Positions 39,414 through 60,448 of a stretch of 64,000 nucleotides of DNA are shown here, piece by piece. The position numbers and the translations under genes were made by a program. The notes under the pieces are model-generated. The model did not search any database. It worked only from the letters and a program-made list of their open reading frames with translations, and was not told where the DNA came from. The stretch lies in assembly GCA_963717525.1 (NCBI GenBank), contig OY970343.1, positions 1,472,001-1,536,000 of the forward strand, given 5' to 3'. The stretch is from an uncultured Methanoregulaceae archaeon. Lineage in GTDB: Archaea; Halobacteriota; Methanomicrobia; Methanomicrobiales; Methanospirillaceae. Numbering within the stretch: the first letter of the stretch is position 1; the number at the start of each line of letters is the position of its first letter.

Positions 39414-41336
39414 ATGAATCAGACTACACGAACGGTCGCACTCATTCAGATGGAGATCGGGCCGGATCCGGACAGCAACCTCAAAACTGCGCTTGAGCGT
39501 GTTGAACATGCCGCACGGAACGGGGCACAGTTCATCTGCCTGCCCGAATTGTTCCGTACCCGGTACTTCCCGCAGCAGATAGGTGTAAACGCAGAGCCGT
39601 TTGCCGAGACTATTCCCGGTGAATCGACGCAGGCATTTGCCCGGCTCGCCCGTGACTATGCGGCGGTTATCATTGTCCCTGTCTTTGAACGGTCTCCTTC
39701 TGGACAGTTCTTCAATGCAGCAGTCGTGATCGATGCAGATGGCAGTCTCCATGCTTCCTACCATAAGGTACACATCCCCCAAGATCCGAAATTTTTTGAA
39801 AAAGGGTATTTTTATCCCGGAGATCACTATGCCGTGCATACTACCCGGTATGGGAGGATTGCCGTTCTCATCTGCTACGACCAGTGGTTCCCCGAGGCGG
39901 CACGGTGCGTTGCCCTTGACGGGGCGGAGATCATATTCTACCCAACGGCAATCGGGAATCCCTGCACGGATCCACCATCAGAGGGGGACTGGCAGGAAGC
40001 ATGGGAGCTGATCCAGCGCAGCCACGCCATCGCAAACAGCGTGCATATCGCAGCCGTCAACCGGGCAGGCCGGGAAGGAGATATCCAGTTTTTCGGGGGA
40101 TCCTTTGTCTGCGACGCGTTCGGGAAACTGCTCGCCCATGCCGGCGATACCGGGGAGACGATCACTGCCACGATCGATCTTGGGATAAACGACACGATCC
40201 GGGATTCGTGGGGATTTTTCAGGAACCGCCGCCCGGACACCTACGGTACCGTTTGTGCCCGTGTGCCCGGATACGATGCGACGGCACCGATTCCCGGGAA
40301 AGGGGATACACCGAGGAAACTGGGTTTTTTCATGCCTGCCGAGTGGGAGCAGCACGATGCGGTCTGGTTATCGTGGCCACACAACAAAAACACCTTCCCG
40401 AACCTCCCTCCTGTCGAGGATACCTACGTCAGGTTCATTGCCGGGATAGTCCCCTCAGAACGGGTTGAACTGTTCGTTCCCACGCCAGTGATAAACCGGA
40501 TGGTAAAAGCGCGCCTGAAAAGCGCCGGTATCGAACTGTCCCGGATCACGATCCGGACCATCCCCTACTCCGACGTATGGATCCGCGATTATGGTCCGAC
40601 GTTCGTGGTAAACCCGGCCCTGAAAAGATCGGCAATGGTACGCTGGGAGTTCAATGCGTGGGGCGAAAAATACGAGGACCAGATCGCTGACGGACATGTC
40701 CCCGCTGACATGAACCGGTGGCTTGACCTGCCCGTCTTCAGGCCACAAATTATTCTCGAAGGCGGGTCAATCGACACCAACGGCAGGGGTACGGTGCTGA
40801 CCACACGCTCCTGCCTTCTCAACCAGAACCGGAACCCGAATCTCACGAAGGACGAGATCGAGGAGTACCTCAGGGAATACCTCGGGGCAATAAAAATTAT
40901 CTGGCTCAACCAGGGCATCGCGGGCGATGATACCGATGGTCATATCGATGATATCGCGAGGTTTGTTGCGCCATCCACCGTTGTCTGTGCCTGTGAGGAA
41001 AATCCTGCCGATGAAAATTACGCGGCTCTCAGAGAAAATTTTGAGATCCTGAATTGTGCAACCGACCAGGAGGAAAAACCATTCACGGTGATAAAACTCC
41101 CTATGCCGGCTCCCGTTGTCATCGGTGATGAACGGTGCCCGGCAAGTTACACGAACTTCTATATCGGGAACACCGTGGTAATCGTTCCGGTCTTTGATGA
41201 CCCCCATGACGGGGAGGCCATCCGCATCATCCAGGAACTCTTCCCGGAACGGACGGTTGTTGGAATAAACGCCCGTGCGATGGTAGAAGGATCCGGGACG
41301 TTCCATTGCGCAACCCAGCAGCAGCCCCGGCCGTGA
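39414..41336 (+). CDS. Fused N-carbamoylputrescine amidase (nitrilase fold) and agmatine deiminase
   Basis: LPEL / YHKVHIP / ICYDQWFPE triad; then MPAEWE, WIRDYGP, EGGS, DTDGHID and FHCATQQQP. Confidence 0.92.
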   Translation: MNQTTRTVALIQMEIGPDPDSNLKTALERVEHAARNGAQFICLPELFRTRYFPQQIGVNAEPFAETIPGESTQAFARLARDYAAVIIVPVFERSPSGQFFNAAVVIDADGSLHASYHKVHIPQDPKFFEKGYFYPGDHYAVHTTRYGRIAVLICYDQWFPEAARCVALDGAEIIFYPTAIGNPCTDPPSEGDWQEAWELIQRSHAIANSVHIAAVNRAGREGDIQFFGGSFVCDAFGKLLAHAGDTGETITATIDLGINDTIRDSWGFFRNRRPDTYGTVCARVPGYDATAPIPGKGDTPRKLGFFMPAEWEQHDAVWLSWPHNKNTFPNLPPVEDTYVRFIAGIVPSERVELFVPTPVINRMVKARLKSAGIELSRITIRTIPYSDVWIRDYGPTFVVNPALKRSAMVRWEFNAWGEKYEDQIADGHVPADMNRWLDLPVFRPQIILEGGSIDTNGRGTVLTTRSCLLNQNRNPNLTKDEIEEYLREYLGAIKIIWLNQGIAGDDTDGHIDDIARFVAPSTVVCACEENPADENYAALRENFEILNCATDQEEKPFTVIKLPMPAPVVIGDERCPASYTNFYIGNTVVIVPVFDDPHDGEAIRIIQELFPERTVVGINARAMVEGSGTFHCATQQQPRP

Positions 41337-42001: not shown

Positions 42002-42481
42002 TCAGGCCGGTTTCTGCTGGCGCAAGGAAGCAATAACTTCCTTGATATCGGGGATGCTGTGAACAGGATAGATCTTCACGAAGGTAACCCGCTGTTCCTC
42101 ATCAATGAGAATATTAGCCCTCTCTGAGAACCCGTTTGCATCCCTGAAGATCCCGTACATCATGGCAACATGACCGTGAGGCCAGAAATCACACAGCAGG
42201 GGGGTTTGCGTGATCCCCAGATTTCCAGCCCATGCCTTCTTGCAGGGAACAGAATCGACGCTGATCCCGACCGCTATGGTGTTAAGGGATGCCAGGACAT
42301 CCCGGTTATCCTCGAGCGATTTCATCTGGCCGGCACAGAAAGGGGTCCAAGCAAGCGGGTGAAACGAGAGAAGAACCCCTTTTCCTGCATGTTCAAACAG
42401 ATCAAAGGTCGCATCGTTCTGATCTTTGAGCGAGAAATTCCGTGCCGGATCGCCGGTCCGAATAAGGGGCTGCCCTTCCAT
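42002..42481 (-). CDS. Peroxiredoxin (AhpE/BCP-like)
   Basis: PxxxTxxC (PLAWTPFC), ISVDS, DFWPHG, SERA. Confidence 0.88.
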   Translation of the reverse strand: MEGQPLIRTGDPARNFSLKDQNDATFDLFEHAGKGVLLSFHPLAWTPFCAGQMKSLEDNRDVLASLNTIAVGISVDSVPCKKAWAGNLGITQTPLLCDFWPHGHVAMMYGIFRDANGFSERANILIDEEQRVTFVKIYPVHSIPDIKEVIASLRQQKPA

Positions 42482-42568
42482 GATATCACCAGTACACTTC
42501 CGGAATGCAACCATCAGATATGAGGGTTCGCATCCCGGAAGCCTGGCCTGTAGCGACCGCTGTGTCCT

Positions 42569-43220: not shown

Positions 43221-43727
43221 CTATTTCCCGGGCGTCTGCTGGAGGACAAGAGCCGCAGAGTTCATGCAGTAGCGTTTCCCCGTGGGTGGGGGCCCGTCAT
43301 CAAAGATATGCCCGAGGTGAGCCCTGCACCGTGAGCAGAGGACTTCGGTACGGACCATCCCCTGAGTTGTGTCTTTCCTCAAGGTGACATTGAGCGGAGA
43401 AACCGGTGCAGAGAAACTTGGCCAGCCGGTACCAGAGTCGAACTTTGCCTCTGAAAAGAAAAGGGCGGTCCCGCAGCAGGCGCAACGATAGATACCGTTG
43501 GCTTTGCAGTCATGGTACTGGCCGGTGAACGGATACTCGGTCTCCTGCTTTCGTGCCACGGCAAACTGCCGGGGGGTCAGCTGTGCCTGCCACTCTGCAT
43601 CGGACTTTTCGATCGATGCGACATATTCCACATCGTTCTTTTCCGGGTCAAAGATCGGAATGGTACTGCTTATGTTCCTTCCTTCTGAAATGCTCTTCTT
43701 CATTTTCAGGAATACTGCCTCCTTCAC
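43221..43727 (-). CDS. msrB: Peptide-methionine (R)-S-oxide reductase
   Basis: [27 protein letters not shown]. Confidence 0.95.
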
Positions 43728-44488: not shown

Positions 44489-44643
44489 AACGAAGGAATG
44501 GCAGTTCTACCAGATGAGTATGATAGTGCCGGACAGAACAAAACCTGCTAAAATTCTGTTGAGATCGCAGGGTATGAGATAAGGGCCGGTGGCAGCCTCC
44601 CGAAGATCAGGGTAGACCGGCTTTCGTAAAGAGACAGGTGGAT

Positions 44644-45613
44644 CTATCCTTTTTTACCCAGAACCCGGATGATCGCATCGCCGAACTCCCGGGTCCCGGC
44701 CGATCCCCCGATGTCCCGGGTCCGGATACCGGACGAAAGAACCGTGGTGATGGCAGCCTCTAACCGGGCAGAACCTTCATTGTCCCCAAGGTAGGCGAGG
44801 AGCATCGCTGCGCTCCGCAGGGCTGCAACGGGATTTGCACTGTTTTTCCCGGCAATATCCGGGGCGCTGCCGTGGACCGGCTCAAACAAGGCATACCGGT
44901 CCCCGATATTTGCGCTCGGCACAAGACCCAAGCCCCCGACAAGGTAGGAGGAGACATCAGAGAGGATATCGCCAAAGATGTTCGTGGTCACGATCACATC
45001 GTATGCCCCGGGATGCTGGAGGATATCGAGACTGAGGGCGTCGATGAACTTGTCATTGTACAGTTACTCCGGCCTTTTTTGCCTCCTCAATACAGATATC
45101 CCGGAAGAAAACGTCGGATTTGAGCACATTTGCCTTGTGCCCGATGGTGAGTTTTCCCTGCCGCTGACGGGCACACCGGATCGCCGCCCGCGCAATTCGT
45201 TCGGTTCCTTTCCGGGTCACCACCCGGAGCGTGGTCGCACGATCAGGACCAATCTCCTCGATTCCTGAGTACAGCCCTTCGGTATTCTCCCTGACGATCA
45301 TCAGGTCAAAGCCGTCACCCCGGACCGGTCGCAGGTTTGCGAACAGGTCAAGCGCTTTCCTGATCCTCAGGACAATACTCTGGTAATCTTTCATCGGCGG
45401 AGTCGTGACCGCCCCGAAGAGGACGGCATCCGCCGTTTTGAGTTCGGAGATGTCGCCATCTGCACAGGGGCATCCGGTCTGCTCCCAGCGCCCGTACCCG
45501 ACCTCGACCGGGAAATATTCGTACTCGGGATGGAGCAGTTCGAGAGCCTGCTGCGCAACCGGGATCACCTCGTGGCCGATCCCGTCGCCTTCGACAATGG
45601 CGATCCGCGTCAT
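44644..45613 (-). CDS. aksF: Homoisocitrate / isopropylmalate dehydrogenase family (frameshift near 45060)
   Basis: GDGIGHEV, RENTEGLY, HKANV, NIFGDILSD, EPVHGSAPDIAG; operon context favours aksF over leuB. Confidence 0.8.
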
Positions 45614-46410
45614 TGTGCCCTCCACCGGCTGACCAGTTCCTGCACCGAACGTGCGATCTTTGCGGGACTTGCGCCCCAGTGGACGATCGCCCCGAATTTC
45701 CCCTTCCAGGTACCTAGTCCTTCCCGTTCAGACCGGCAACACCGGGCGATAAACGGTTCTTCTGCGACCTGCTCGAGGGGACAGATGTTTTCGAGCACAA
45801 AATCCGTCCCGTAGCACTCCGTGCAGAACTGTTTTGCCGTAAGACAGCCGGCTACCCGTTCGCCACCCTGCAGGGGATCGGCATCCAGTGTCCGTGTATA
45901 CCCGGCGGCCCGGCAGGGATAGACATCGGCAGGCACCGTTGTTATATCCCGGATATGGTGATCGAATACCACCGAGAGCTCCCCGAAGAGGCCGATCGCC
46001 TCCATCTCTTTCAAAGCCGCCGACAGGGTCGGCCGGGGCGGGAGAACATCGTAGACATGTACGGTGAGGAATCCCGAAAGATCGGGATCGAGCACAAACG
46101 TCATGTTCTCCTCAAGACCCGTGAAAACAGTACACCGGCACCCACTTTCTATCGCGAGACGCACCAGCCGGGCCCGGTCGTTGAGCTGCACTTTCTCCGG
46201 GTAATGACAGGCTTCCTCTGGTGTCGCCAGTATCCTCGACGAAATGATCTCCCGCATGACGTGATTTTTTGCCGGATCAAGGGAAACTTCGAGAAGTTCG
46301 CACCCCCGGTCTGTCTCCTTCAGGAGATACCGGCTCAGGGTATAGACCCGGTCGCCGCAGGGTCTGGCGGAGGCGACCCCGACAACCTTGCAGTGTTCAG
46401 GAAAGATCAC
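45610..46410 (-). CDS. Conserved hypothetical Cys-rich protein inside the aks operon
   Basis: GTGA/ATGA overlaps with both neighbours; YPC, GC, ICP, RCC and VHWG motifs. Confidence 0.8.
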   Translation of the reverse strand: MIFPEHCKVVGVASARPCGDRVYTLSRYLLKETDRGCELLEVSLDPAKNHVMREIISSRILATPEEACHYPEKVQLNDRARLVRLAIESGCRCTVFTGLEENMTFVLDPDLSGFLTVHVYDVLPPRPTLSAALKEMEAIGLFGELSVVFDHHIRDITTVPADVYPCRAAGYTRTLDADPLQGGERVAGCLTAKQFCTECYGTDFVLENICPLEQVAEEPFIARCCRSEREGLGTWKGKFGAIVHWGASPAKIARSVQELVSRWRAQ

Positions 46411-46877
46411 CGGTGAGCCCTCCAGTACTCGACAAGGCCGCCGGCGTAAAGGATCTCCTGCATACGGGGAGACAATGGGTGGATTGTATGCCGTTTCCCA
46501 CCAGTGTCTACCCAGCCACCCGACAGGTCGAATATAACCGGGCTTCCTTCTTCGCAGGCCAAGTCCGACTCGATGAGGGGGAGCCCGATATTGATCGCAT
46601 TCCGGAAGAAAATCCGTGCAAAAGACGGGGCGATGACAGCGACAACCCCGGCTTCCCGGAGGGCTAGGGCAGCCTGCTCCCTCGAAGAGCCGCACCCGAA
46701 ATTTTTACCGGCGACAATCACGGCCCCTTTGAGCCGGGGGGCAAGCGCGGGGTCGAGATCCTCCAATACGTGGGTTGTCCAGATGCTCCGGTCCTTGGTC
46801 CGCAGGTACCGGCCGGCGATGATGAGATCGGTATCAATATCCGCCGGGAGACACACGGCGGTTCCTCTGCCCTGCAT
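46407..46877 (-). CDS. aksE: Homoaconitase small subunit (LeuD/HacB family)
   Basis: DIDTD, GRYLRT loop, NFGCGSSREQA, FARIFFRNAIN. Confidence 0.85.
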   Translation of the reverse strand: MQGRGTAVCLPADIDTDLIIAGRYLRTKDRSIWTTHVLEDLDPALAPRLKGAVIVAGKNFGCGSSREQAALALREAGVVAVIAPSFARIFFRNAINIGLPLIESDLACEEGSPVIFDLSGGWVDTGGKRHTIHPLSPRMQEILYAGGLVEYWRAHR

Positions 46878-48088
46878 TATCCTGCCTCCGGCGAAGCGAT
46901 CTCCCCTTCAAGGGCGCTTGCTGCAGCTGTAGCGACAGAGCCAAGATAGATCTCCCCGCCGACACCCATACGGTTCCTGAAATTCCGGTTGGCAGTCGAG
47001 AGGCAGACCTCGCCTTCCCCGAGCACACCCATATGGTACCCGAGGCAGGGGCCGCACCCGGGCGTCCCGATGCTGCACCCGCCTCCAACGATATCGGCGA
47101 GCACCCCCGTGCGGATCGCCTTTTCGAGAACCAAGGCAGACGCCGGGACGACGATGGTCCGTACGGCCACCTTCCTGCCCCTGACCATCCGGGCGAACCG
47201 GGCGAGATCAGAATACCTGCCGTTCGTGCAGGTACCAACAAAGACCTGGTCAAGCGGCAGGCCTGCAAGGGTATCCACGGGCTTGACCGTGTCCACCCGG
47301 TGGGGGATAGCAACCAGCGGCACGATGTCGGCAAGATCCAGATCGAGTTCCTGACGGTACGAACACGGTGAGGCCTCCTGAGAGGAGACCTCATGCCCGT
47401 GCTCCTTCAGGTATCTGACGGTCACATCATCTGCATAAAAGAGCCCGGCCTTTGCCCCGGCTTCGACGGAAAGATTCGAGAGGACGAGGCGTTCGTCCAT
47501 GGAGAGGTGGCGCACTCCGTCCCCCACAAACTCGAGTGCCTGGTAGGTCGCCCCGTCCATGCCGAGTTTAGCCACGTAGGCAAGCGCGAGGTCCTTTGCT
47601 TCCGCCGCCCCCGTAAACCTCCCGGCCAGGTGGATACCCAACGATTCGGGGACACGGAACCAGGTCTCCCCGGTCAGCCAGATCGCTGCCATATCGGTTG
47701 CACCCACACCGGTAGCAAACGCCCCGAACGCCCCCAGCGTGACGCTGTGCGAGTCTGCCCCGACTACTATCTCACCGGGCAGGACTACCCCCTCCCCCAT
47801 CAGCTGGTGGCAGATCCCGCAACCGACATCGGAGAACTGCATGAAGGAGCTTCTCGCAAAATCCCTCAGCTCGTGCTGGAGGGTTGCCGTTGTGCCGTTG
47901 TTGGCCGGGGCGATATGATCAAACTGGATATAATACCCGGTCTCTTCTCCCAGCCGGTCTCCTCCCATCTCTTTCCAGGCTTCCAGAGCAAGGACGCCGG
48001 TCCCATCGTGGGCATATGCCCTGTCAACCTTCCGGTCGACGTATTCCCCTGCGGTTGCGCCAAGGATACGTTCGGAGAGCGTGCTCAT
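46877..48088 (-). CDS. aksD: Homoaconitase large subunit (LeuC/HacA family)
   Basis: GICHQ, GADSH, GTCTNG, GCGPCLG, STANRNF. Confidence 0.85.
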   Translation of the reverse strand: MSTLSERILGATAGEYVDRKVDRAYAHDGTGVLALEAWKEMGGDRLGEETGYYIQFDHIAPANNGTTATLQHELRDFARSSFMQFSDVGCGICHQLMGEGVVLPGEIVVGADSHSVTLGAFGAFATGVGATDMAAIWLTGETWFRVPESLGIHLAGRFTGAAEAKDLALAYVAKLGMDGATYQALEFVGDGVRHLSMDERLVLSNLSVEAGAKAGLFYADDVTVRYLKEHGHEVSSQEASPCSYRQELDLDLADIVPLVAIPHRVDTVKPVDTLAGLPLDQVFVGTCTNGRYSDLARFARMVRGRKVAVRTIVVPASALVLEKAIRTGVLADIVGGGCSIGTPGCGPCLGYHMGVLGEGEVCLSTANRNFRNRMGVGGEIYLGSVATAAASALEGEIASPEAG

Positions 48089-49216
48089 GCCGGGGTCTCC
48101 CGTTGCGCCCGCCGGATCAGTTTCCGGAGTATCTCGGGGGTGATGCTGCATTTCTGTTCGGAATGTTCCTTGACAAGGTCGAGGACGCGGCAGATCTGGG
48201 CCCCGGAGAGATCCTCGCCCAGTGACGCGATTACGTGCTCAAGCGCCTTTCTCCCGGTGTGCTTCCCAAGGATGAAGTGACGCTCACTGCCCACCAGGTC
48301 CGGGGGGAAGTACCTGGTACGTGGCAGGGTCTTCGAGGATTGCGGCGATGTGGATGCCACTCTCGTGCGAAAAGGCGAGTTCCCCTGTGACCGGCTTGTT
48401 CTTCGGGAGCGCTATACCTGAATACTTTTCCACCTTCCGGGAGAGGGCGAAGAGGTGCGAGAGGTCATACCGGTCGATGCCGCCCTTGGTTCGCAGGATG
48501 ACCAGTACCTCTTCAAGCGAGGCATTACCCGAACGTTCGCCAATACCGTTAACGGTCGTGTGCAGCTGGAAGGCCCCGGCCTGTGCCGCTGTGATCGTGT
48601 TTGCGACAGCGCAGCCCATATCGTTGTGGCAGTGGGCGCAGAACGGCCGGTCGACAGAAGAGACAAGATCGGTCATGATCGTGCGCATCTCGTCCGGGAT
48701 CAGGCATCCCACCGTATCGGCAAAACTGAGCAGAACAGCCCCGTGGTCGGCTGCCCTCCGGTATACTTCCTTGAGAAACACAAGGTCTGTCCGTGACGCG
48801 TCCTCTGCTGCAAACCGCACGGCAACCCCGTGGTCCCGGGCAAAATCAATCATCACAAGGGCATCCTCGAGCACCTTCTCCCGGGGTTTCTTGAACTTGA
48901 CCCGGACGTGGAGATCTGAGGTCGGGATAAAGATGGAGACCATGTCGACATCGCAGTCGATTGCTGTGGTGATATCCTCTTTTTTTGCCCGGGCAAAACC
49001 GCATATCCGGGCATCAAGCCCAAGGTTTGCGATGGTTTTTACACACTGTTTCTCGTTTTCAGAGACTGCCGGGAACCCGGCCTCGATTACTTCGACGCCG
49101 ACACAATCCAGTGTCCGGGCGATATCCACCTTCTCTTCGCAGGAGAATGACACGCCGGGTGTCTGTTCCCCGTCTCTCAGCGTTACATCACAGATCTCAA
49201 TATTCCACGGTTTCAT
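48085..49216 (-). CDS. aksA: Homocitrate synthase family (frameshift near 48315)
   Basis: DVTLRDGEQ, HCHND, GIGERSGN, HESGIH, ILGKHTG; no LeuA regulatory domain. Confidence 0.85.
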
Positions 49217-50468
49217 GGTGTGCTCCCTTGGGGCATTCCGCCTCCACGACAATGGTCTTCGGTGCATCCGGGATATGGATCACCTCGTGGAGGCGGCGTT
49301 CATCATTCGCATGACAGAGGACCGGGTCGGCCCAGCGGATGTAAGGGACCGGATCGCTCACCTTCTGACCACCGGTCATCGCGGCGCAGTGATTCTTCAT
49401 CACGATGCACAGGAGCGGGAGTCCCTTCTCATACACATCGATAAGGGCATTCAGGCCCGAGTGGAGCAGTGCGTAGTCGCCGATCAACGCCACGTGTGTG
49501 CTTCGTGCAGCGACCGCGATACTTGACCCCATACCATAGCTGGCAACACCCAGTCCATAGGGGGGTTTCAGCCCGAATACCGAGCAACCCGCGTCGCAGA
49601 TCAGGTGCATGTCCCGTCCTTTGAGGATATCCAGCAGGGGCCGGTACGGGCAGTCTAAACAGAACGTCCGGCCAAATCCCCGGTCTTTTTGTGATTCCGG
49701 CCGCCCCTGCGGTCCCGGTGGCAGGATAGCCCGGTGATCCCGGACAAAGGACCGGCCGTACTCCTTCACCTCATGGAACGGTGCAGCACGGGCCGGTACC
49801 GGGTTCACGGTCACGACCCGGGAGTCCCCCGGCGCCGGACCGGCGCCCAGGGTATCCCCCTTCCACCGGTTCAGGGGCGATGCGTCCGACCATGCAAACA
49901 TCGTCCTAGAGATCTCTGCAGCAGCAGTGACCCTGCCATGCATGGTCCAGCTCCGGTCGGCGAGTCTTCCCATACCCTCATTCCGGAGAGCCGGGATTAC
50001 CGTGACCTCAGCGTCCAGCAGCTGCGGCGTGAGCCGGAGCATAGCAACCCGGGAGAAGGTCTCCGATGCAGTCAGCGCTGCTTCAACCCCGGCAAAACAT
50101 GTGGTCTCGTCAGGTTCGATCACGGGAATCTCCGCCAGTTCCCCGTAATACCGGGAGTCCTGTGCCGTCTGGGAGCCTTTAGATTCGGGATCGTCACCGA
50201 CGACAAGAAGTACTCCACCCCGGATACCCTGCACCGTGGCCTGGACAAGCGGGTCGGCGCAGGCGTTCACGCCAACGTTTTTTATAATGACGGCAGCTCG
50301 TCTGCCGGCGAGAGAATCGCCCAGTGCATATTCGAGGGCGGTCTTTTCGTTTATGACAAACTCTGCCCGGGTTAATGTGCCAAGTTCCGTCACCGGGAAA
50401 CCCGGGACGGTATACTGCCGGTCCGTTCCGGCAGAGATCGCTGCAGCCAGCGCCCCGACTCCCTTCAT
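49197..50468 (-). CDS. Compact ThDP-dependent enzyme, IorA-like, with no beta subunit nearby
   Basis: PGFPVTE, NEKTALE, KNVGVN, SQTAQD, FCxxCPY, DAGC, and GDYALLHSG...N ThDP motif. Confidence 0.82.
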   Translation of the reverse strand: MKGVGALAAAISAGTDRQYTVPGFPVTELGTLTRAEFVINEKTALEYALGDSLAGRRAAVIIKNVGVNACADPLVQATVQGIRGGVLLVVGDDPESKGSQTAQDSRYYGELAEIPVIEPDETTCFAGVEAALTASETFSRVAMLRLTPQLLDAEVTVIPALRNEGMGRLADRSWTMHGRVTAAAEISRTMFAWSDASPLNRWKGDTLGAGPAPGDSRVVTVNPVPARAAPFHEVKEYGRSFVRDHRAILPPGPQGRPESQKDRGFGRTFCLDCPYRPLLDILKGRDMHLICDAGCSVFGLKPPYGLGVASYGMGSSIAVAARSTHVALIGDYALLHSGLNALIDVYEKGLPLLCIVMKNHCAAMTGGQKVSDPVPYIRWADPVLCHANDERRLHEVIHIPDAPKTIVVEAECPKGAHHETVEY

Positions 50469-51433
50469 TCATCCCTCCCGGGCACAAGATCGCAGCCTGC
50501 ACAGGTCGTGCACATGGTAAGAGCACCGGCGGTATCCAGTCCGGCACGGGCAAGGGCCTGGCGGTGTATGGCAAAGAGTTTCCTGAGCCTCCCGGCAGAT
50601 GGCCGGGGTCTCCCGGCACATCCCGCCACCGGGTTGAGCGGCCGGAGCACCGGGATCACCCCACGCGACGTGAGCCGGTTGATGCAGGCCTCCATCTCTG
50701 CATCAGTCTCTCCAAGCCCTACGATAACATTGGAAAATACCCGGCCCTTACCGAAGAGTTCCACGGACCGGTCGAGAACCCGCCACAGGCAGTCGTAGTC
50801 AAGACCCGGGCACATCTCTGCAAAGAGCTCCGGGGTGGCCGCCTCGATATTGAATTTAACCTCTGTCACACCGAGGGCATGGAGCTTATCCGGGGTCTGG
50901 TCGGTCGGGTAGATTGACACACCAATGGGCAGGCCAAAGAACTTCAGGTGACCGATGACCTCACAGACATAGGACTCCTCCTCCCCGATGCTCTCCAGGA
51001 CACCGCTCGTGAGCGATATAGCGCCGACCCGGTGCCGGACCGATTCGACGAGATCCATGATCTCCTTTACGGTTTTACGTTTACCGGCAAGCCGGGGGAC
51101 AGAGCAGTAGCGGCAGGAGAAGATGCAGCCCTCCGTAACGGTAATAAAAGCCTGGTCCGGGCAGTGAAGCCCCGGCTGGAGGAGCCGGCCCGAAATCTGC
51201 CGGTCCTCAAAAAAGAGATCGGCAACCCCGCCCCCCCGGTGGGCGATCTCAACAGGGGACGCCGGGTTGATCGCAAGCTTGACCCGGTGGCTGCCCATGG
51301 CAAAAAAGACCGAGCCTTTTCCACCAGCGCCCGGGCCTGCCGTGGATTTTGCAAGGTAATCCTCTGCTGGTTCGCCGCTGAGCCGGGCAGAGCCGGCCTC
51401 GAGCAGCCGGGCCTTCAGTTCTTCCCACTGCAT
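50465..51433 (-). CDS. Radical SAM protein, biotin-synthase-related
   Basis: CIFSCRYC; NIE, VIVGLGET; C-terminal CTTCAGCD. Confidence 0.88.
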   Translation of the reverse strand: MQWEELKARLLEAGSARLSGEPAEDYLAKSTAGPGAGGKGSVFFAMGSHRVKLAINPASPVEIAHRGGGVADLFFEDRQISGRLLQPGLHCPDQAFITVTEGCIFSCRYCSVPRLAGKRKTVKEIMDLVESVRHRVGAISLTSGVLESIGEEESYVCEVIGHLKFFGLPIGVSIYPTDQTPDKLHALGVTEVKFNIEAATPELFAEMCPGLDYDCLWRVLDRSVELFGKGRVFSNVIVGLGETDAEMEACINRLTSRGVIPVLRPLNPVAGCAGRPRPSAGRLRKLFAIHRQALARAGLDTAGALTMCTTCAGCDLVPGRDE

Positions 51434-52311
51434 AGTTCCAGCGCCTCCTCGTACCGGATGAAGAACGGCAGGGCAGCCACCGCCCCGGTGATCCCCCGCC
51501 CGTTCATCACAATGCGGAGATGGGGATCTTTGAGAGTCTGCACACGATCCGGAGTCACTTCCCCGCGTTTTACGTCCTTTGCGTAATCCATGAGCTCGTC
51601 TGACAAGGAAAAACCGGTATAGACAGCCATGCCGGTCTTCTCTGAAAGGGTATATTTTTTGAGCAACTCGCAAAACCGCCTAACAAGTTGTTCCGGTACT
51701 GTCGTGGCAAATTCAGCGACAAGACTCACGCAGTTCTTGGTCCGGTACGCCACCGGGAAGAGCTGGACAATCGTATGCGAGAGATAGACAGATTGTTCAT
51801 CCTCAACCGCCCTTGCGATATTGTGGACAAGTGTCCACGTCGCTCCCTCTTCTGCCGTGTCGGTATCATCCACCCCAATCAGAATCCGCTGCCGCCGGGG
51901 CAGCCAGAGCGTGGCACCTGCCACTTTCCCCCCGCCGGAAGGATCACACTGTTCCCGCAGCACACCCCGTGCGGCAGCACGGCAGGAGGTTGCACCCACG
52001 CCACCGCCACCCATACCGATGTAGGTCACCGCAATCTCATTCCTGCTTACCGAGACCCCGGAGATTCCTGCGGGGAACCGGGATCCTTCGAGCGCAAGAT
52101 CGACGGCACCGGGACGGAGCAGGTACCGGGATGTCGATCCCACGCACCTGACACTCTTCACCAGAGGGCTCTGTGCATAATGATGCTGGGTCCACATTGC
52201 GCCCCCGATACAATCGAAGAATTCGATCAGCTCGACCTGGCTCGCGGTCTCATCCGCCACCGCAACGATCCGGGGATACCGGATCACGTACGGATCAGAG
52301 ATGCTCGCCAT
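51415..52311 (-). CDS. Methanogenesis marker protein 11-like (TiaS-related DDTD domain), copy A
   Basis: GMGGGGVGA, IGVDDTDT..GATW, RTKNC, GRGITGAVAA. Confidence 0.75.
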   Translation of the reverse strand: MASISDPYVIRYPRIVAVADETASQVELIEFFDCIGGAMWTQHHYAQSPLVKSVRCVGSTSRYLLRPGAVDLALEGSRFPAGISGVSVSRNEIAVTYIGMGGGGVGATSCRAAARGVLREQCDPSGGGKVAGATLWLPRRQRILIGVDDTDTAEEGATWTLVHNIARAVEDEQSVYLSHTIVQLFPVAYRTKNCVSLVAEFATTVPEQLVRRFCELLKKYTLSEKTGMAVYTGFSLSDELMDYAKDVKRGEVTPDRVQTLKDPHLRIVMNGRGITGAVAALPFFIRYEEALELCSGKN

Positions 52312-53251
52312 ACAGCCCCGCCGCCTCGATTCCCCGGTCTGCCCACAGCACTGCACCGAGCGCTCCGATCCGCCCTTTCCTCCCATTATGGTCGAGATAC
52401 TCGATGCCGAGCCGCTCTGCCTCTTCCTGTGCATTTTCAACGGTAAGGATCTCCGTCTTGATGGCTTTCATGAACGGGGACTCCTGCCCGGTCCCGATAC
52501 CCCGCGAGAATGCGATGCCGGTATCCTTCGAGAAGGTATGATCTTCCACGAACGTGCAGACGAACTCACGAAGTGCACTGATGCTTTCTGGCCGGGCGGC
52601 AAAGGTGAGGGCGGAACCGACACAGTTTGTCGTTTTGCTGGGGACCGCCGGGTTGAGCTGGACAAGCCGCATGGTGAGGAACTCAACGCCTTCGATATGG
52701 CAGGCCTCCGCACATTTTAAGGCCATCACCCATGTGGCACCCTCCTGCCTTGTATCCGTATCATCGATCCCAAACGAGATCTTCTCGTACCTGGGGGATA
52801 CGATCCGGACGTGGTTGGTCCGTGCACCCCCTACCTTAAGGTCTTCTTCTGCCGGGTATTCCGCCCGGATAACCCCCGGCGCCTGAGGGAGGCATGCAGC
52901 AATACCAACACCAGCGCCAGCGATACCTGCCCATGTGGTGATCACCTCATCACCCTTCACTTCCACCGCTTCCAGTGCCTGGCCGCCGATAGTCCCCGCG
53001 GCTGCCCCGAAATTGACCGGGTGGTGGCCGAGGCGTGCCTGCATGGTCATCGAGATCCCTTCCACGGCACACGCTGCCACTGCACCACCGGCGCGGGACC
53101 GGTTCATGGCATCCCACTCAATCGTTCCCCGGGCGTGACACTGCTCAAGGATCTCGGCACGCCCTGCCCTCTCGTCAACCATCACCAGAAATTTCTTTGA
53201 GAAGAGCGGGCCGAACCGCTGCTTCACGCCATCGGGTGTAAGTATGATCAT
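52295..53251 (-). CDS. Methanogenesis marker protein 11-like paralogue, copy B
   Basis: GIAGAGVG, FGIDDTDT..GATW, QLNP...KTTNC, GRIGALGA. Confidence 0.75.
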   Translation of the reverse strand: MIILTPDGVKQRFGPLFSKKFLVMVDERAGRAEILEQCHARGTIEWDAMNRSRAGGAVAACAVEGISMTMQARLGHHPVNFGAAAGTIGGQALEAVEVKGDEVITTWAGIAGAGVGIAACLPQAPGVIRAEYPAEEDLKVGGARTNHVRIVSPRYEKISFGIDDTDTRQEGATWVMALKCAEACHIEGVEFLTMRLVQLNPAVPSKTTNCVGSALTFAARPESISALREFVCTFVEDHTFSKDTGIAFSRGIGTGQESPFMKAIKTEILTVENAQEEAERLGIEYLDHNGRKGRIGALGAVLWADRGIEAAGLYGEHL

Positions 53252-53341
53252 GTTATCGCCGAAATTTTCGTTAACAAAGTATTCGGCAATAACAATATAT
53301 ATAGAATTCCATGACTGAGAAAATTTTTGCAGAAAAAGAGA

Positions 53342-54226
53342 TTAAAGGACCTTTGCCAGTTCAATCTTGAACGGGCCAAGACTGCCGCCAAAATTACCTG
53401 CCGAGATAAACTTCACGCCCGGCACCTTGACAGCGGCCCTGATACCTGCCCCCATCGCAGCGGCAACGCTCTTCTCATCAACGCCATCGATAACGATCTC
53501 GTAGACTGCCTTGACGCCTGCCGGAACCTTGCTGTCGGGAACTTTTTCGCGGAGCGTGGGGCAGTACTTCTCGTTGGTGGAGGCGGTCATGAATTTGTAC
53601 TTCAGGCTGCCGACCTTGGAACCGCTTGCGACAATCCCGCCGGGGAAACTTGTGATAACTCCTTTCACATCGGCAATCGCGTCTGATGCTGCCTGGGCCG
53701 CCACGAGAGCTGCCATCTGGTTCTCGCCCATGATAAAGAAGTTGCCGCCGGCAACACCCTTCACGATGCCGAATTCCTCTTCCCCGACATACTCACCGTT
53801 CATGATCGGGATCGCCCAGCACTTCCTGCCGCCTACCTCTTTCTGGTACTCGTACCCGTCACCGAAGAAATGCAGTTTTACCGGGATCTTCTCCTCGGCA
53901 TCGGTGATGCCGTTGAAAACCGCTGTCGTAGGTGCCGTCAGCACGCACTCGGCGAGGCGTTCCACGACCTGCTCCTTGAGTTTCTTCTTGCTGGCGCAGA
54001 TGAGGATTGCAACGCCCGGCCTGCCGTCAGGTGTCTCGCTGCCGGGAAGAACACACTCGATGCCCGCTTCACAGGGGCAGCCGATCGCAGAGGTTGCAAA
54101 CCCGGTTGCCTCGGTTGCTGACTTGAGTGCCCAGTCTTTTGTCACTGCGGTGATGATCACCCGGCAGACCCAGGTTGGGAATGCCTCCGCATAGGTGTTG
54201 TCAATTGTTACGCCGTTGACTTCCAT
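53342..54226 (-). CDS. ftr: Formylmethanofuran:H4MPT formyltransferase
   Basis: [38 protein letters not shown]. Confidence 0.96.
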
Positions 54227-54494
54227 ACTAACATAACCTCAGGTATACCAACAGTACCATTATTATTACTGAATAAATTTTCTCATTTGATCGCATATTC
54301 TGAGAGCGCACCAGAATATCGTCAAAAAGTATAACACATATGATTGACATGCCCCGGGAGCATATAAACAAAAATTAAAAAAAATTAATAAAATGGCCGG
54401 GTTACATCGATATATTTCAGAACATTTATCTACATACTTTTACCACTCTTTTGATAATCGATTCTGAAATCGATCATAGCTGGTGCGTGAACCC

Positions 54495-54761
54495 ATGGCA
54501 TTTGCAGTGCAGATCAATCCCGTCCATTGCACCGGCTGTAGCAATTGTGTTGTTGCATGTCTTGTGGACGCGCTGGAACTTCACACGGTAGTTCCGGAGT
54601 CAACCGAAAATATCTGCACAGCCCGGGATACTGAACCGAAGGTCACGGGCTTCAAAGATGAGCTCCCTGCCGGGGGCAGTGTATGCGTCCAGATGTGTCC
54701 GCATGATAGTATCAGGCTGACAGGGCCCTGGGAAACCAGAGCAGAGGCAAAGGTGCAATAG
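54495..54761 (+). CDS. FwdG-like ferredoxin with a degenerate second cluster motif
   Basis: CTGCSNCVVAC intact; second site reads PAGGSVCVQMCP. Confidence 0.7.
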   Translation: MAFAVQINPVHCTGCSNCVVACLVDALELHTVVPESTENICTARDTEPKVTGFKDELPAGGSVCVQMCPHDSIRLTGPWETRAEAKVQ

Positions 54762-54784
54762 AGGAACAGCGTGAGGGTTATTTC

Positions 54785-55957
54785 ATGGCATTATTTCCAA
54801 AGTTTTCCAAAAAGAGGGATGGTGTCAACGTTGTGATGGAGCAGCGCCTCCTTCAGAACGTGAACAACCTGATTCTGAATTCAGAGACCTGCACGGGATG
54901 CGGTATCTGTGTCGAGTCCTGTCCGGAGGATGCAATAGTCCTCGGACTTGTCGGTGCAGCCCGCCGCGGTGCCATCAACTACGCGACGCCTATCGATGTT
55001 GACGAGACCAAGTGCTCGTACTGCGGTGTCTGCGTGATCATGTGCCCGTTCAATGCATTGACTCTGAAAGTCGACAATCAGGAGCGGCTTCCCATTATTG
55101 AAAAAGAGGGATTCCCGCAGTATGACATGAAGGCAGAGATCAATGACGAAAAGTGCGTAAAGTGCACGATCTGCGAAGAGGTCTGCCCGCGTGACGCAAT
55201 CGACCGGAATGTCCCCGCATATGCAGGGACGTACAAGGGACCGGTTGCCGGGGCAAAGGATCGCCAGGCCGCGATCACGACAAAGACCACCTTCACCGTC
55301 GACAAGGAGAAATGCTCCCTGTGCGGCATCTGCGGTGCGCTCTGTCCTGCCATCAGGGTCAAGCACAAAGAATTTACTGCCGAAGCAGGGAAAGTTGAGG
55401 GTGATGTGATCTGGGACGAGACCAAGTGCGACGCCTGCAAGGTGTGCGTAGAAGCCTGCCCCGAGGAATGCATTACCATCGAACGCGAAGTCATATCCGA
55501 CAAGGTAGATGGCAAGGTCAGCATTGTCCAGGACAACTGCTGCACATGTACCTGGTGCTCGCGCAACTGCCCGACCGAGGCAATTACCGTTGAGAAGATC
55601 TTCGAAGGCGACATCGAATTCCACGCCGAAAAGTGTCCCGGCGGCTGTTCGACCTGCGCCGATATCTGCCCGGCAAATGCAATCTATCTTCCGAGCGAGA
55701 AGCCGGCAGCAGACATGAAAGGCGAGATCGAGCCCAGCATTGCCGTCAACAAGGACTACTGCATTCTCTGTGGTGCCTGCGTGAATGCCTGCCCCGGTGA
55801 AGATATCATCATCCTCCAGCGGACCGGCATCCGGATGAAAGGAACGGAGACGGACCTCTTCAAGAAGATCAAGGAGAAACTCTTTGCGAAGAGAACCTCG
55901 AAGGTGAAGGAAGGCATTGCCGGACAGGTCGGACTAAAAATGATGGAGAAGGCGTGA
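54785..55957 (+). CDS. fwdF: Polyferredoxin, FwdF/FmdF type
   Basis: Eight CxxCxxCxxxCP-type motifs; lies directly before hdrC. Confidence 0.85.
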   Translation: MALFPKFSKKRDGVNVVMEQRLLQNVNNLILNSETCTGCGICVESCPEDAIVLGLVGAARRGAINYATPIDVDETKCSYCGVCVIMCPFNALTLKVDNQERLPIIEKEGFPQYDMKAEINDEKCVKCTICEEVCPRDAIDRNVPAYAGTYKGPVAGAKDRQAAITTKTTFTVDKEKCSLCGICGALCPAIRVKHKEFTAEAGKVEGDVIWDETKCDACKVCVEACPEECITIEREVISDKVDGKVSIVQDNCCTCTWCSRNCPTEAITVEKIFEGDIEFHAEKCPGGCSTCADICPANAIYLPSEKPAADMKGEIEPSIAVNKDYCILCGACVNACPGEDIIILQRTGIRMKGTETDLFKKIKEKLFAKRTSKVKEGIAGQVGLKMMEKA

Positions 55958-55969
55958 GGGAGGACGAAC

Positions 55970-56551
55970 ATGGCAAGATCAAAAGGTTACCCGGAAGCGC
56001 TGGAGAAAAAACTCCACGATCAGCGGTTTTACCGTGAGGATTCTACACCCGACTTCACAAAAAAGGTCGAGGCATCTTCACGCACCATTGCCCACATGTG
56101 CTACCAGTGCGGTACCTGCACCGGATCGTGCCCGTCAGCACCCCGGAGCACCTACCGCATCCGCAAGTTCATGCGGAGAGCAGTCCTTGGGCTCGAGAAT
56201 GAGGCTCTCACCGATCCCGATCTCTGGCTCTGCACCACCTGTTACAGCTGCACCGACCGGTGCCCGCGTGACATCGCACCCACCGACGTTATTATGTCCA
56301 TGAGGAACATGGCATTCACCCGCGATATCATACCGGTGAACTTCCTCAAGACCGTGCAGGCGATCTACAGCTCCGGCCACGGTGTGCCCAATAACGATGT
56401 CAACCGTGCAGCCCGGGAGAGGCTCGGACTCACCCGCGACCCGCCGACCACCCACATGTATCCTGAATACATGCCGGCGATCAGGAAGATCATCGACCAC
56501 TACAACCTCAAGGCAAATGCCGACAGGATTGTCAAGGAACGGGAGGGATAA
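55970..56551 (+). CDS. hdrC: Heterodisulfide reductase subunit C
   Basis: CYQCGTCTGSCP, LWLCTTCYSCTDRCPR. Confidence 0.96.
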   Translation: MARSKGYPEALEKKLHDQRFYREDSTPDFTKKVEASSRTIAHMCYQCGTCTGSCPSAPRSTYRIRKFMRRAVLGLENEALTDPDLWLCTTCYSCTDRCPRDIAPTDVIMSMRNMAFTRDIIPVNFLKTVQAIYSSGHGVPNNDVNRAARERLGLTRDPPTTHMYPEYMPAIRKIIDHYNLKANADRIVKEREG

Positions 56552-56557
56552 GGGAAC

Positions 56558-57481
56558 ATGTCAGAATCCAAAGCAAACCACACGTTCGCGTTATACCTTG
56601 GCTGCATTGCACCGAACCGGTACCCGGGCGTGGAATCTGCAACCATCAAGGGATGCAAGAAACTGGGCGTTGATCTTGTTCCCCTCAAGGGAGCAAGCTG
56701 CTGCCCGGCCCCCGGTGCATTCGGTTCCATCGACCTGAACGTCTTCTATGCAATGGCAGCACGCAACCTTGTGCTCGCCGAGCAGATGAAGACCGATATC
56801 GCCCTTGTCTGCAACGGCTGCTACAAGTCGATCTGGGAAGTCAACCACAAGCTCAAGCACAACCAGGATCTCCGCGATGGCGTCAACGAAGTACTCAAGG
56901 AAGTTGACATGGAGTTCAAGGGCACCATCAATGTCTATCACGTGGCGGAACTCCTCTATAATGAGAAATTCATAGGGGTCGATAAAGTCAAGGACTCCGT
57001 CGTCAACCCCCTGACCGGTGCACGCATTGCCGTCCACTACGGCTGCCACCTGACTAAGCCCCATAAGGACCGTGAGTTCGAAAAGGAGGTCATGTTAAAC
57101 ACCGAGCACCCGACCTGGATGGAAGAACTGGTCGCAGCCCTCGGTGCCACGCCGGTCGAGTACCGCAACAAGATGCAGTGCTGCGGTGCCGGCGGCGGTG
57201 TCCGCGGGTACGACATCGTCCACTCGCTGGATATAACGAACGAGAAGCTGATCAACCTCAAAGAGGAAAAGGTGGATGCGCTGACCGACATCTGCCCGTT
57301 CTGCCAGCTCCAGTTCGACCGCGGCCAGATCGAGATCAAGGAAAAGTTCGGTGTCGAGTACAACTTACCGGTGCTGCACTTTGCCGAGCTGCTCGGGCTG
57401 GCACAGGGAATGAGCCCGCAGGAACTCGGGCTTGACCTGCACGGGATCAGCTGCGAACCGTTCCTGCAGAAGGTGCTGTGA
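56558..57481 (+). CDS. hdrB: Heterodisulfide reductase subunit B
   Basis: SCCPAPG, CNGC, HYGCH, CCGAGGGVR, CPFCQLQFD. Confidence 0.96.
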   Translation: MSESKANHTFALYLGCIAPNRYPGVESATIKGCKKLGVDLVPLKGASCCPAPGAFGSIDLNVFYAMAARNLVLAEQMKTDIALVCNGCYKSIWEVNHKLKHNQDLRDGVNEVLKEVDMEFKGTINVYHVAELLYNEKFIGVDKVKDSVVNPLTGARIAVHYGCHLTKPHKDREFEKEVMLNTEHPTWMEELVAALGATPVEYRNKMQCCGAGGGVRGYDIVHSLDITNEKLINLKEEKVDALTDICPFCQLQFDRGQIEIKEKFGVEYNLPVLHFAELLGLAQGMSPQELGLDLHGISCEPFLQKVL

Positions 57482-57491
57482 GGTGGGGAAG

Positions 57492-59642: not shown

Positions 59643-60062
59643 ATGTCTGACGAGTGGAAACCCAAGATCCTCGGCATGGTCTGCAACTGGTGTTCCTATG
59701 CAGGGGCCGACCTCGCCGGCGGCGGTCGTATCCAGTACCCCCCGGACATCAGGATTGTCCGTGTGATGTGCACCGGCCGTCTTGACTCCCTTTTCGTCCT
59801 CAAGGCGTTTGCCGATGGGGCGGATGGAGTCCTCATCTCCGGGTGTCACTTCGGGGACTGCCACTACCTTGAAGGTAACTACAAGGCAGCAAAGAGAATG
59901 TTCATGGTCAAGAGACTCATGAAGAGCATCGGCCTCGACGACCGGCGGTTCCGGATGACGTTTGTCTCTGCATCAGAAGGTGCAAAATGGGCAAAAGTCG
60001 TAACAAACGTCGTTGACACCGTAAAAGAACTCGGGCCGAGCCCGCTTACGGAAAACAAGTGA
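59643..60062 (+). CDS. mvhD: [2Fe-2S] subunit MvhD
   Basis: CNWCSYAGAD, RVMCTGR, GCHFGDCHY. Confidence 0.95.
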   Translation: MSDEWKPKILGMVCNWCSYAGADLAGGGRIQYPPDIRIVRVMCTGRLDSLFVLKAFADGADGVLISGCHFGDCHYLEGNYKAAKRMFMVKRLMKSIGLDDRRFRMTFVSASEGAKWAKVVTNVVDTVKELGPSPLTENK

Positions 60063-60301
60063 CGAACGTTCAACAACCTTTGCAAAAACCCTGTCAAATA
60101 CCAATATTTTTTATAAGAAGCGCACCGGAAAACAGGTGCTTTTCTCATTTTTTGTAAGAAATGATGACACTATTTTAGAGAATCGTCACACTGCGTAAAA
60201 CAAAGAAAGGGCGAATATATGTAATATTTGAACATTCCTTCAATCTTCTGTAATATTTTTAAAGTTCTATAAAACAATCCTCCGAGATGAAATCGGAACG
60301 C

Positions 60302-60308
60302 TTATAAA
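60302..60308 (+). promoter_or_regulatory. Probable TATA box of the mcr operon
   Basis: TTATAAA about 140 bp upstream of mcrB; GGAGG RBS before the ATG. Confidence 0.55.
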
Positions 60309-60367
60309 GGGAAATTGGGAATTATTCAATGTCCCAATCTAGGGGACGTGCAATAGCGACTTTCAAT

Positions 60368-60409
60368 CACTACCAGTGTTCTGTTATCCACCACCAGTGT
60401 TCAGTTACC
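60368..60409 (+). repeat. Two tandem 21-bp direct repeats in the mcr leader
   Basis: cactaccagtgttctgttatc / caccaccagtgttcagttacc (18 of 21 identical). Confidence 0.8.
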
Positions 60410-60448
60410 GTACCGCATAGCATAAAAATCAGATTTGGAGGAATTCAC

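Follow-up and report, generated by a model that had tools for sequence, protein, structure and literature searches.

An overlapping nine-gene operon joining aks-type genes to five further gene families, candidates for late steps of coenzyme B biosynthesis in Methanomicrobiales

Coenzyme B (CoB) donates the electrons to methyl-coenzyme M reductase (MCR), and all biological methane formation as well as anaerobic methane and alkane oxidation depend on it. Its biosynthetic pathway has been open since the labelling studies of the late 1980s, with genes assigned to the chain-elongation half alone, in which AksA, AksD/AksE (HacAB) and AksF of Methanocaldococcus jannaschii elongate 2-oxoglutarate to 2-oxosuberate, an established biochemistry. 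This work concerns an operon of nine minus-strand genes at positions 44644-53251 of a 64,000-nucleotide stretch of DNA (hereafter the window; assembly GCA_963717525.1, contig OY970343.1, positions 1,472,001 to 1,536,000) from an uncultured Methanoregulaceae archaeon. The operon begins with paralogue B of methanogenesis marker protein 11 (m11B), ends with an aksF-like gene, and joins a putative aks set to five other genes. The source genome is a single contig of 2.29 Mb with a G+C content of 54.5%; its marker 11 protein encoded in the window shares 86% identity with that of Methanoregula boonei 6A8, the matches listed all being Methanoregula-type.

A first-pass annotation, made from the letters of the window, had proposed a complete CoB operon, on the premise that the late steps of the pathway have no firmly assigned genes. 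The premise agrees with a literature search, which returned no paper assigning these genes to late CoB steps (subscription journals lay largely outside its coverage), and with a 2025 paper that calls the CoB pathway still unknown (PMC12068725). A gene inventory from 2011 gives an "estimated 2 unknown proteins" for CoB synthesis (PMC3087415).

The operon and its interrupted genes

The features of the locus are, from upstream to downstream:

53342..54226, minus strand: ftr, the upstream neighbour on the same strand, with FTR and FTR_C domains
53252..53341, minus strand: AT-rich spacer of 90 nt between ftr and m11B containing the TATA-like TCTATATATATT, a putative promoter (sequence reading)
52295..53251, minus strand: m11B, marker-11 paralogue, TiaS-TCKD kinase-like, 318 aa (TIGR03280 184.9 bits, PF22641)
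51415..52311, minus strand: m11A, methanogenesis marker protein 11 proper, 298 aa from the ATG at 52311 (TIGR03280 333.8 bits)
50465..51433, minus strand: radical S-adenosylmethionine (SAM) protein, 322 aa, with CxxxCxxC and a C-terminal CxxCxxC (PF04055 57.3 bits)
49197..50468, minus strand: thiamine diphosphate (ThDP) protein, 423 aa, with an IOR-alpha-like N-terminal and a ThDP-binding C-terminal domain (TIGR03336, PF02775)
48085..49216, minus strand: aksA-like gene, homocitrate-synthase-type (HMGL-like and HCS_D2), split over two frames in the deposit
46877..48088, minus strand: hacA (aksD), homoaconitase large subunit (NF001614, TIGR02086)
46407..46877, minus strand: hacB (aksE), homoaconitase small subunit (HacB2_Meth, LEUD_arch)
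45610..46410, minus strand: DUF7714 protein, about 266 aa with a GTG start (PF24830 283 bits), listed as unknown in the first-pass annotation
44644..45613, minus strand: aksF-like homoisocitrate dehydrogenase gene (Iso_dh domain), split over two open reading frames (ORFs) in the deposit

The nine genes lie in the order originally described and do overlap at their starts and stops: assuming the likeliest starts, each of the eight junctions is an overlap, of 17, 19, 4, 20, 4, 1, 4 and 4 nt. Beyond ftr, on the opposite strand, lie genes for a polyferredoxin, HdrC, HdrB, HdrA and an MvhD-like protein, with mcr starting at 60329; the domain matches of these neighbours likewise confirm that the cluster stands near ftr, hdrCBA and mcr.

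In the deposited sequence the aksA-like gene is split into ORFs of 327 aa and 91 aa in different frames and the aksF-like gene into ORFs of 190 aa and 117 aa, while mcrB (60329-61700) is interrupted likewise and mcrA (C1:1536274-1537338 of the source genome, past the window end) gives two partial matches. Four runs, from four studies, supplied Logan contigs that were aligned to 44600-61600; these omit one base at 45062 (3/3 covering runs; the first bin, 44600-45166, has no depth in run X12), at 48314 (4/4) and at 61241 (4/4). Without the extra base, the frames extend over 351 codons in aksF, 397 in aksA and 464 in mcrB, against 215, 331 and 323 as deposited. Three of the four runs may represent the source sample, and the contigs of X1, X2 and X6 have in common seven substitutions in 17 kb relative to the deposit; the fourth run, a bog metagenome of another study carrying a related strain, agrees at both sites that it covers. 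Because the extra bases are absent from the contigs of four runs, the breaks in aksA, aksF and mcrB are assembly errors and the genes are intact in nature; aksA and aksF were rejected as genuine pseudogenes on this ground. The completeness estimate is 87% despite the genome being one contig, which indel and base errors in the deposited assembly probably explain.

Protein families of the operon

The Pfam models HMGL-like, Aconitase, Aconitase_C and Iso_dh and the NCBIfam models TIGR02086 and TIGR02087 all score above their cut-offs in the aks set, and the best-scoring equivalogs are those of the Aks/Hac type, though none of the set reaches the NCBIfam cut-offs for these. HacA exceeds the cut-offs of NF001614 (473.8 bits) and TIGR02086 and scores 397 with HacA_Meth (cut-off 550), while HacB exceeds that of LEUD_arch and scores 158 bits with HacB2_Meth (cut-off 230). 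The best match of HacB in the PDB is the homoaconitase small subunit of M. jannaschii (2pkp, 114.6 bits), against 98.8 and 98.6 bits for isopropylmalate isomerase small subunits. Its GRYLRTKD aligns with GPYLRTTD of 2pkp, having in common the YLRT that we take to be the homoaconitase-type specificity loop of the small subunit; isopropylmalate isomerase 1v7l has GRYNLTKD. Intact orthologues of the two interrupted genes from a related locus (L001) were also scored, homocitrate synthase equivalogs being best for the 376-aa AksA (383 and 358 bits) and AksF2_Meth (314 bits, cut-off 540) ahead of AksF_Meth (292) for AksF, all below cut-offs.

A separate leuCDB-like operon at 69-72 kb of C1 in the source genome shares 41%, 49% and 29-44% identity with the cluster genes, and two further synthase paralogues share 43% and 34% with the aksA-like gene. 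Together these correspond to the usual methanogen complement, so that the cluster set is left as a third one. Best equivalogs, the 2pkp/YLRT match and the separate leu paralogues thus support the identity first proposed for the four genes, as an aks set whose membership rests on context and best match. They belong to the families of the M. jannaschii Aks enzymes and are distinct as a set from the leucine genes of the genome, but here these putative elongation enzymes are encoded in one overlapping operon with five other genes.

The gene between hacB and aksF encodes a DUF7714 protein (PF24830, 283 bits), for which the XcbA family model NF052538 gave 46-48 bits against a cut-off of 150, with an alignment covering model positions 40-290 of 293. 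All 16 DUF7714 members tested matched the XcbA family below threshold (best E 8.7e-26), and five cysteines are invariant (C165, C188, C209, C223 and C224, thus including a CC pair). By these profile matches, DUF7714 is a distant homologue of XcbA and not a member of its family. XcbA of Xanthobacter autotrophicus Py2 is described as a [2Fe-2S] protein reducing sulfoethanethioaldehyde to coenzyme M (CoM), the last step of bacterial CoM synthesis (PMC9457059). Both proteins are cysteine-rich and nearly the whole family model is aligned, whereas DUF7714 is archaeal, is embedded in aks genes rather than CoM genes, and would act on a predicted C7 carboxylate instead of a sulfonate. The structural model of DUF7714 (pLDDT, i.e. 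predicted local confidence, 89.5) had no Foldseek match at E<=0.001; VIA-align gave a best Z of 7.7, a weak match to a generic alpha/beta C-terminal half, and a Z of 5.7 over 139 aligned residues with HypD, too weak to use. DnaB-like clusters suggested as relatives by a protein atlas search were rejected, their best score of 0.86 being at chance level.

The radical SAM protein belongs to its superfamily (PF04055, 57.3 bits, cut-off 29.5) and passes no family cut-off, scoring 64.5 bits with LipS2 (cut-off 270), 27 with PRK05481 (cut-off 203), and below the cut-offs of variant_rSAM and MSMEG_0568 as well. Its best PDB profile matches are the biotin synthases 8vdw and 8vcw, the lipoyl synthase 5exi, and HydE, with E-values of 1e-9 to 6e-9 for BioB and LipA. 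Its model (pLDDT 92.7) has a fold like HydE, ThiH, BioB and LipA, preceded by an additional beta-rich N-terminal domain of about 98 residues. The earlier description as BioB-like therefore stands for the closest profile and fold, LipS2 and HydE belonging to the same group of relatives and the CxxxCxxC motif being canonical. C103, C107, C110, C308, C311 and C314 are invariant, and the second triad could hold an auxiliary cluster. C-terminal auxiliary cysteines of the CxxCxxC type are unlike BioB or LipA.

The ThDP protein matches TIGR03336 (IOR_alpha) with 144 bits against a cut-off of 650.9, over two stretches only, and PF02775 with 38 bits. Among PDB profiles the best match is the alpha subunit of a 2-keto acid:ferredoxin oxidoreductase (1yd7), a single-sequence PDB search having returned no match. 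In 17 sequences, residues E46, C270, C273, C295, C412 and G330-D331 do not vary, and the protein keeps the glutamate of the pyrimidine-binding domain and a GD...N ThDP motif; the pattern of the four invariant cysteines presumably corresponds to the ligands of the proximal [4Fe-4S] cluster in the 2-oxoacid:ferredoxin oxidoreductase class, and a [4Fe-4S] site is probable. No ferredoxin domain was detected in the protein. The IOR-alpha-type N-terminal domain and the ThDP-binding PP domain are common to the oxidoreductase alpha subunits and to this protein, which lies far below their cut-off and whose middle domain has been deleted in Methanomicrobiales. The models of the sulfopyruvate decarboxylase ComDE (TIGR03845 and TIGR03846) are not among its matches at E<=1e-5, although they do match Archaeoglobi-like neighbour genes of the pair formed by m11A and the radical SAM gene. 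Initially proposed to be a decarboxylase, the ThDP protein thus looks like a cut-down 2-oxoacid:ferredoxin oxidoreductase core rather than a plain decarboxylase of the ComDE type; like ComDE, it would make an aldehyde that is then thiolated.

The two proteins first described as TiaS-related and ATP-using do carry the TiaS kinase domain, PF22641 (TCKD) matching both paralogues. With its TIGR03280 score above the curated cut-off of 255.8, m11A is a member of the marker 11 family, to which m11B, below it, does not belong; m11A has a TCKD and a weak FLD domain, and m11B matches PF22641 with 56.9 bits and contains a GIDDTDT..GATW motif. In 20 marker 11 sequences D148, T150, D151 and T158 are invariant, T158 being aligned to residue 18 of 3u02, a TiaS homologue. 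The marker 11 profile matches the TiaS structures 3u02, 3au7, 3amt and 4rvz at positions 137-283 only, and within the TiaS chains the match covers no more than the initial 150-170 residues; the TiaS model NF040849 is matched by m11B alone, with 47 bits against a cut-off of 600 and at model positions 3-150 of 422. Marker 11 thus has in common with TiaS the predicted ATP-using TCKD domain, with DDTD and the conserved threonine, but corresponds to the kinase and ferredoxin-like part only and has its own N-terminal domain of 135 residues. A separate full-length TiaS-type match is found in the same genome (C1:1840417-1840845). A predicted complex of m11A with the radical SAM protein scored 0.00 in a prediction made without control runs. 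The source genome also contains a third, longer marker-11 paralogue (C1:723825-724658, frame of about 392 aa, TIGR03280 127 bits), similar matches being found in most of 31 relatives searched.

Linkage and distribution across Halobacteriota

To assess linkage, 20-kb regions around marker 11 were taken from 40 Halobacteriota genomes, together with 80 further loci, the best 80 matches to a 20-sequence marker 11 alignment, all of which are from Methanomicrobiales. The order m11A, radical SAM, ThDP, aksA, hacA, hacB, DUF7714, aksF is kept in 10/10 Methanomicrobiales genomes of six families (in one of them, L009, DUF7714 and m11B are relocated) and is fully colinear in 63 of the 64 further loci whose downstream sequence extends for 7.5 kb or more, the exception being L113, which has no radical SAM match. 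Less regular is m11B, which immediately precedes marker 11 in 49 of the 77 Methanomicrobiales loci with enough upstream DNA and in 6/10 order-wide loci. The cluster itself is preceded by ftr in most of the 80 loci and in 8/10 order-wide ones.

Outside Methanomicrobiales the cluster is dispersed and its parts are linked in other combinations. There, hacB, DUF7714 and aksF remain together in this order in 12/12 loci (families f7, f10, f14, f23 and f29 in our numbering). The m11A and ThDP genes are adjacent in 8/8 loci of the Methanosarcina-like f7, in 2/2 of f23, and in L031 and L022; the ThDP gene adjoins aksA in L139, L140 and L146; and m11A adjoins the radical SAM gene in L021 and in Archaeoglobi-type loci. 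In 3/3 loci of the Methanothrix-like f10, m11A stands alone. The expected conservation of linkage was thus found in the order and, with the genes rearranged, also in several families outside it, and this chain of pairwise links is the main evidence that the five families share one pathway with the Aks enzymes.

Distribution was surveyed in 251 Halobacteriota genomes at least 85% complete and two methanogen control genomes. A match to mcrA (E<=1e-60) was found in 144/251, to marker 11 (E<=1e-40) in 126/251, of which 123 above cut-off, to DUF7714 in 108/251, and to the radical SAM family (E<=1e-30) in 165/251; both controls were positive for marker 11. DUF7714 is confined to class II methanogen-type families (f1-f7, f10, f14, f23, f27, f29 and one more) and occurs in no mcrA-free family; the twelve numbered families have mcrA in 97/102 sampled genomes. 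The radical SAM family tracks mcrA more closely than marker 11 does (33/35 genomes of f15 and all of f12, f20 and f28), paralogues included. At E<=1e-40, m11B is absent from 32/32 sampled f7 genomes and from several Methanomicrobiales genera, though the rest of the set is kept.

By score and identity, the radical SAM genes fall into three types, namely that of the operon, a type ii at 38-46% identity, and a third that is more distant; the source genome has the operon copy only at E<=1e-30. Type ii genes of Methanoregula- and Methanocella-like genomes adjoin SepCysS-like (SepSecS/Aminotran_5) genes in L122, L126 and L134, Cys/Met pyridoxal-phosphate enzymes in L122, L126 and L133, and ThiI in L125 and L126. 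In ANME-1-like genomes (ANME, anaerobic methanotrophic archaea), the third type, with about 26% identity to the operon's protein, overlaps a COG1900 (HcyBio) and CBS gene (L128:8493-11059, L130:494-3066), a pairing for which the literature examined gave no description.

In Archaeoglobi-like genomes without mcrA, m11A overlaps by a few bases a radical SAM gene with Cx8CxxC in place of CxxxCxxC. A thioredoxin reductase gene lies divergently upstream of this pair in six loci, and in three loci of one genus the pair is followed by a cysteate-synthase-like and a fused ComDE-like gene. In these last loci (L026:3779-9883, L035:10096-16097 and L036, without an mcrA match) the genes for thioredoxin reductase, marker 11, radical SAM protein, cysteate-synthase-like protein (252-273 bits, cut-off 324.9) and fused sulfopyruvate-decarboxylase-like protein form what, from its gene content, looks like a thiol-cofactor cluster in organisms without MCR. 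One mcrA-bearing Archaeoglobi-like genome has ycaO-tfuA, presumably the McrA thioglycine genes, beside the pair, and a genome of f30 has a class V aminotransferase gene of the cysteine-desulfurase type in that position. Archaeoglobi possess methanofuran and reportedly lack CoB. A second HacB was rejected as a discriminator in Archaeoglobi, two copies being present in 5/5 genomes with or without marker 11. The source genome likewise contains cysteate-synthase-like and ComDE-like genes (C1:106864-108745 and C1:804183-805067).

Proposed function and competing explanations

On balance, gene families and context make it somewhat probable that the operon produces 2-oxosuberate and converts it at least to 7-mercaptoheptanoate for CoB. 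AksA, HacA/HacB and AksF would take 2-oxoglutarate to 2-oxosuberate, as homology and the bookkeeping of paralogues suggest; the ThDP protein would then decarboxylate 2-oxosuberate to a seven-carbon intermediate at the aldehyde level; and the radical SAM protein, DUF7714 and marker 11 may together convert the carbonyl into the thiol of 7-mercaptoheptanoate. In this last step DUF7714 would be the XcbA-like reductase, while marker 11 would contribute an ATP-using domain of the TiaS kinase type that travels with this radical SAM family. A thiol-forming role for part of the set is suggested because of the kinship with XcbA, the BioB/LipA-like radical SAM protein and the sulfur-transfer neighbours. 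Of the original proposal that the extra genes may be the missing half of the pathway, a role of part of the set in sulfur and thiol formation is thus supported, and one of m11A or m11B in threonine ligation or phosphorylation is not.

Several observations weigh against this assignment. DUF7714 was found in the Methanosarcina acetivorans control and not in that of M. jannaschii, which rules out a universal role in CoB synthesis. The Archaeoglobi-like family f8 has marker 11 in 12/41 genomes and mcrA in 4/41, marker 11 also occurs in f17 and f30, and there are Archaeoglobi-like genomes with no mcrA that carry above-cut-off marker 11 together with the radical SAM partner. Conversely, mcrA-bearing ANME-1-like and alkane-oxidiser-like families are without marker 11 and DUF7714; f15 has mcrA in 27/35 genomes, marker 11 in 1/35 and DUF7714 in 0/35, and the mcrA-bearing f12, f20 and f28 have 0/3, 0/2 and 0/2 for both. 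Searches of five genomes that have mcrA but not marker 11 found no ThDP orthologue (IorA-sized matches or none) and gave, for marker 11, TiaS-level matches only, besides one 135-bit paralogue. Finally, the four invariant cysteines of the ThDP protein suggest redox chemistry rather than plain decarboxylation.

The absence from ANME-1 was rejected as a refutation. Two ANME-1-like genomes have one stand-alone LeuD/HacB-type small subunit only and may lack the known half of the CoB pathway too, so that their case counts against universality and not against the assignment. Among Methanocellales, none of 12 genomes was clearly mcr-free, and a marker 11 row for the mcr-free metagenome-assembled genome Met12 was not found in searches of the supplement of PMC11176372.

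For the sulfur step, a live alternative is that COG1900 enzymes provide the CoB sulfur, as proposed for MMP16 and L-ASST in PMC12068725. These aldehyde sulfurtransferases (MMP16/ComF, L-ASST; PMC12068725) perform the same overall conversion of aldehyde to thiol in the synthesis of methanogen cofactors and amino acids, but the operon's proteins belong to unrelated families. The source genome has no MMP16 (ComF) above cut-off and one COG1900-type match, with CBS, at 165 bits; MMP16 is above cut-off in 0/8 genomes of the Methanoregulaceae family against 26/41 for the order.

Whether the operon extends to the complete pathway is doubtful. In that case 2-oxosuberate would be decarboxylated non-oxidatively by the ThDP protein, sulfur would be inserted by the radical SAM protein together with DUF7714, and marker 11 and m11B would be the ATP-dependent 7-mercaptoheptanoate:threonine ligase and the threonine kinase. 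TiaS activates a carbonyl oxygen with ATP for attack by an amine, which is the chemistry that an acyl-phosphate amide ligase would need; both paralogues keep the TiaS kinase motif (DDTD and the threonine at residue 18 of 3u02), the two ATP-requiring late steps match them in number, and marker 11 is above cut-off in 123 of the 251 genomes and in both controls. However, the full assignment sits poorly with the patchiness of m11B, absent from many genomes that keep the rest (32/32 in f7) and upstream in 49/77 loci only, and with the translational coupling of marker 11 to the radical SAM gene even in mcrA-free Archaeoglobi-like genomes, beside CoM-type precursor genes and not aks. No result here links either paralogue to threonine or to phosphorylation, and the claim of completeness was accordingly not sustained. 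Since m11A and its radical SAM partner stand beside ThDP 2-oxoacid decarboxylase and sulfur-handling genes, marker 11 can be assigned to the thiol step at least as readily as to threonine ligation.

A different product of the Aks-pathway 2-oxoacid, namely pimelate or a pimeloyl thioester for biotin, the side-chain acid of methanofuran, or another thiol, appears improbable. The resemblance of the ThDP protein, with its four invariant cysteines, to oxidative 2-oxoacid:ferredoxin oxidoreductases would suit it, as 2-oxosuberate decarboxylated oxidatively would yield a pimeloyl unit, and so would the equal closeness of the radical SAM protein to biotin and lipoyl synthases and the presence of marker 11 with a radical SAM partner in Archaeoglobi-like genomes without mcrA. 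Against this, DUF7714, placed between hacB and aksF, is akin to a thiol-forming reductase and is restricted to mcrA-bearing families, a distribution that neither biotin nor methanofuran has, and the sulfur-transfer neighbours of the radical SAM family do not fit a thiol-free carbon-chain product.

Mere co-regulation with methanogenesis, with marker 11 and the radical SAM protein acting on a macromolecule (MCR modification or activation, or tRNA), is very unlikely: the cluster does lie near ftr, hdr and mcr, ycaO-tfuA adjoins the pair in one mcrA-bearing Archaeoglobi-like genome and the marker 11 core derives from a tRNA-modifying enzyme, but marker 11 has none of the TiaS parts beyond the kinase and ferredoxin-like domains in its 298 aa (TiaS model 47 against 600 bits), the overlaps, and a linkage to aks, ThDP and DUF7714 genes that persists through recombination across families, are what one pathway typically shows, and the pair is also found without mcrA.

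The assignment of the set to the CoB thiol might be generalised, although only tentatively: marker 11 and the radical SAM protein could form a general ATP- and SAM-dependent aldehyde-to-thiol module acting after ThDP 2-oxoacid decarboxylases, on the CoB thiol in methanogens and on a CoM-like sulfonate thiol in MCR-less Archaeoglobi, with the XcbA-like DUF7714 reductase assisting in class II methanogens. If so, MCR-less sulfate reducers among the Archaeoglobi would keep a methanogen-type thiol cofactor.

Five protein families emerge from the operon and its rearranged relatives as candidates for the late steps of CoB synthesis. Their confirmation would complete a cofactor pathway, add new enzyme chemistry, with a kinase domain of the TiaS type and a reductase of the XcbA type taking part in the synthesis of a small-molecule thiol, and provide methanogen-specific targets for methane mitigation. 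New in this analysis are the artefactual nature of the frameshifts, the hacB-DUF7714-aksF rule outside Methanomicrobiales, the family-wide link to XcbA, the invariant cysteines of the ThDP protein, the phyletic exceptions, and the CoM-type gene context in Archaeoglobi.

Directly downstream of the operon, also on the minus strand, lie genes for a methionine sulfoxide reductase B (SelR, 43221-43727) and a peroxiredoxin (AhpC/TSA, 42002-42514), so that oxidative-stress genes adjoin the putative thiol-cofactor genes. Further on, at 39414-41336 of the plus strand, a 640-aa protein fuses a carbon-nitrogen hydrolase domain to a Porphyromonas-type peptidylarginine/agmatine deiminase domain, and probably represents a fused route from agmatine to putrescine.

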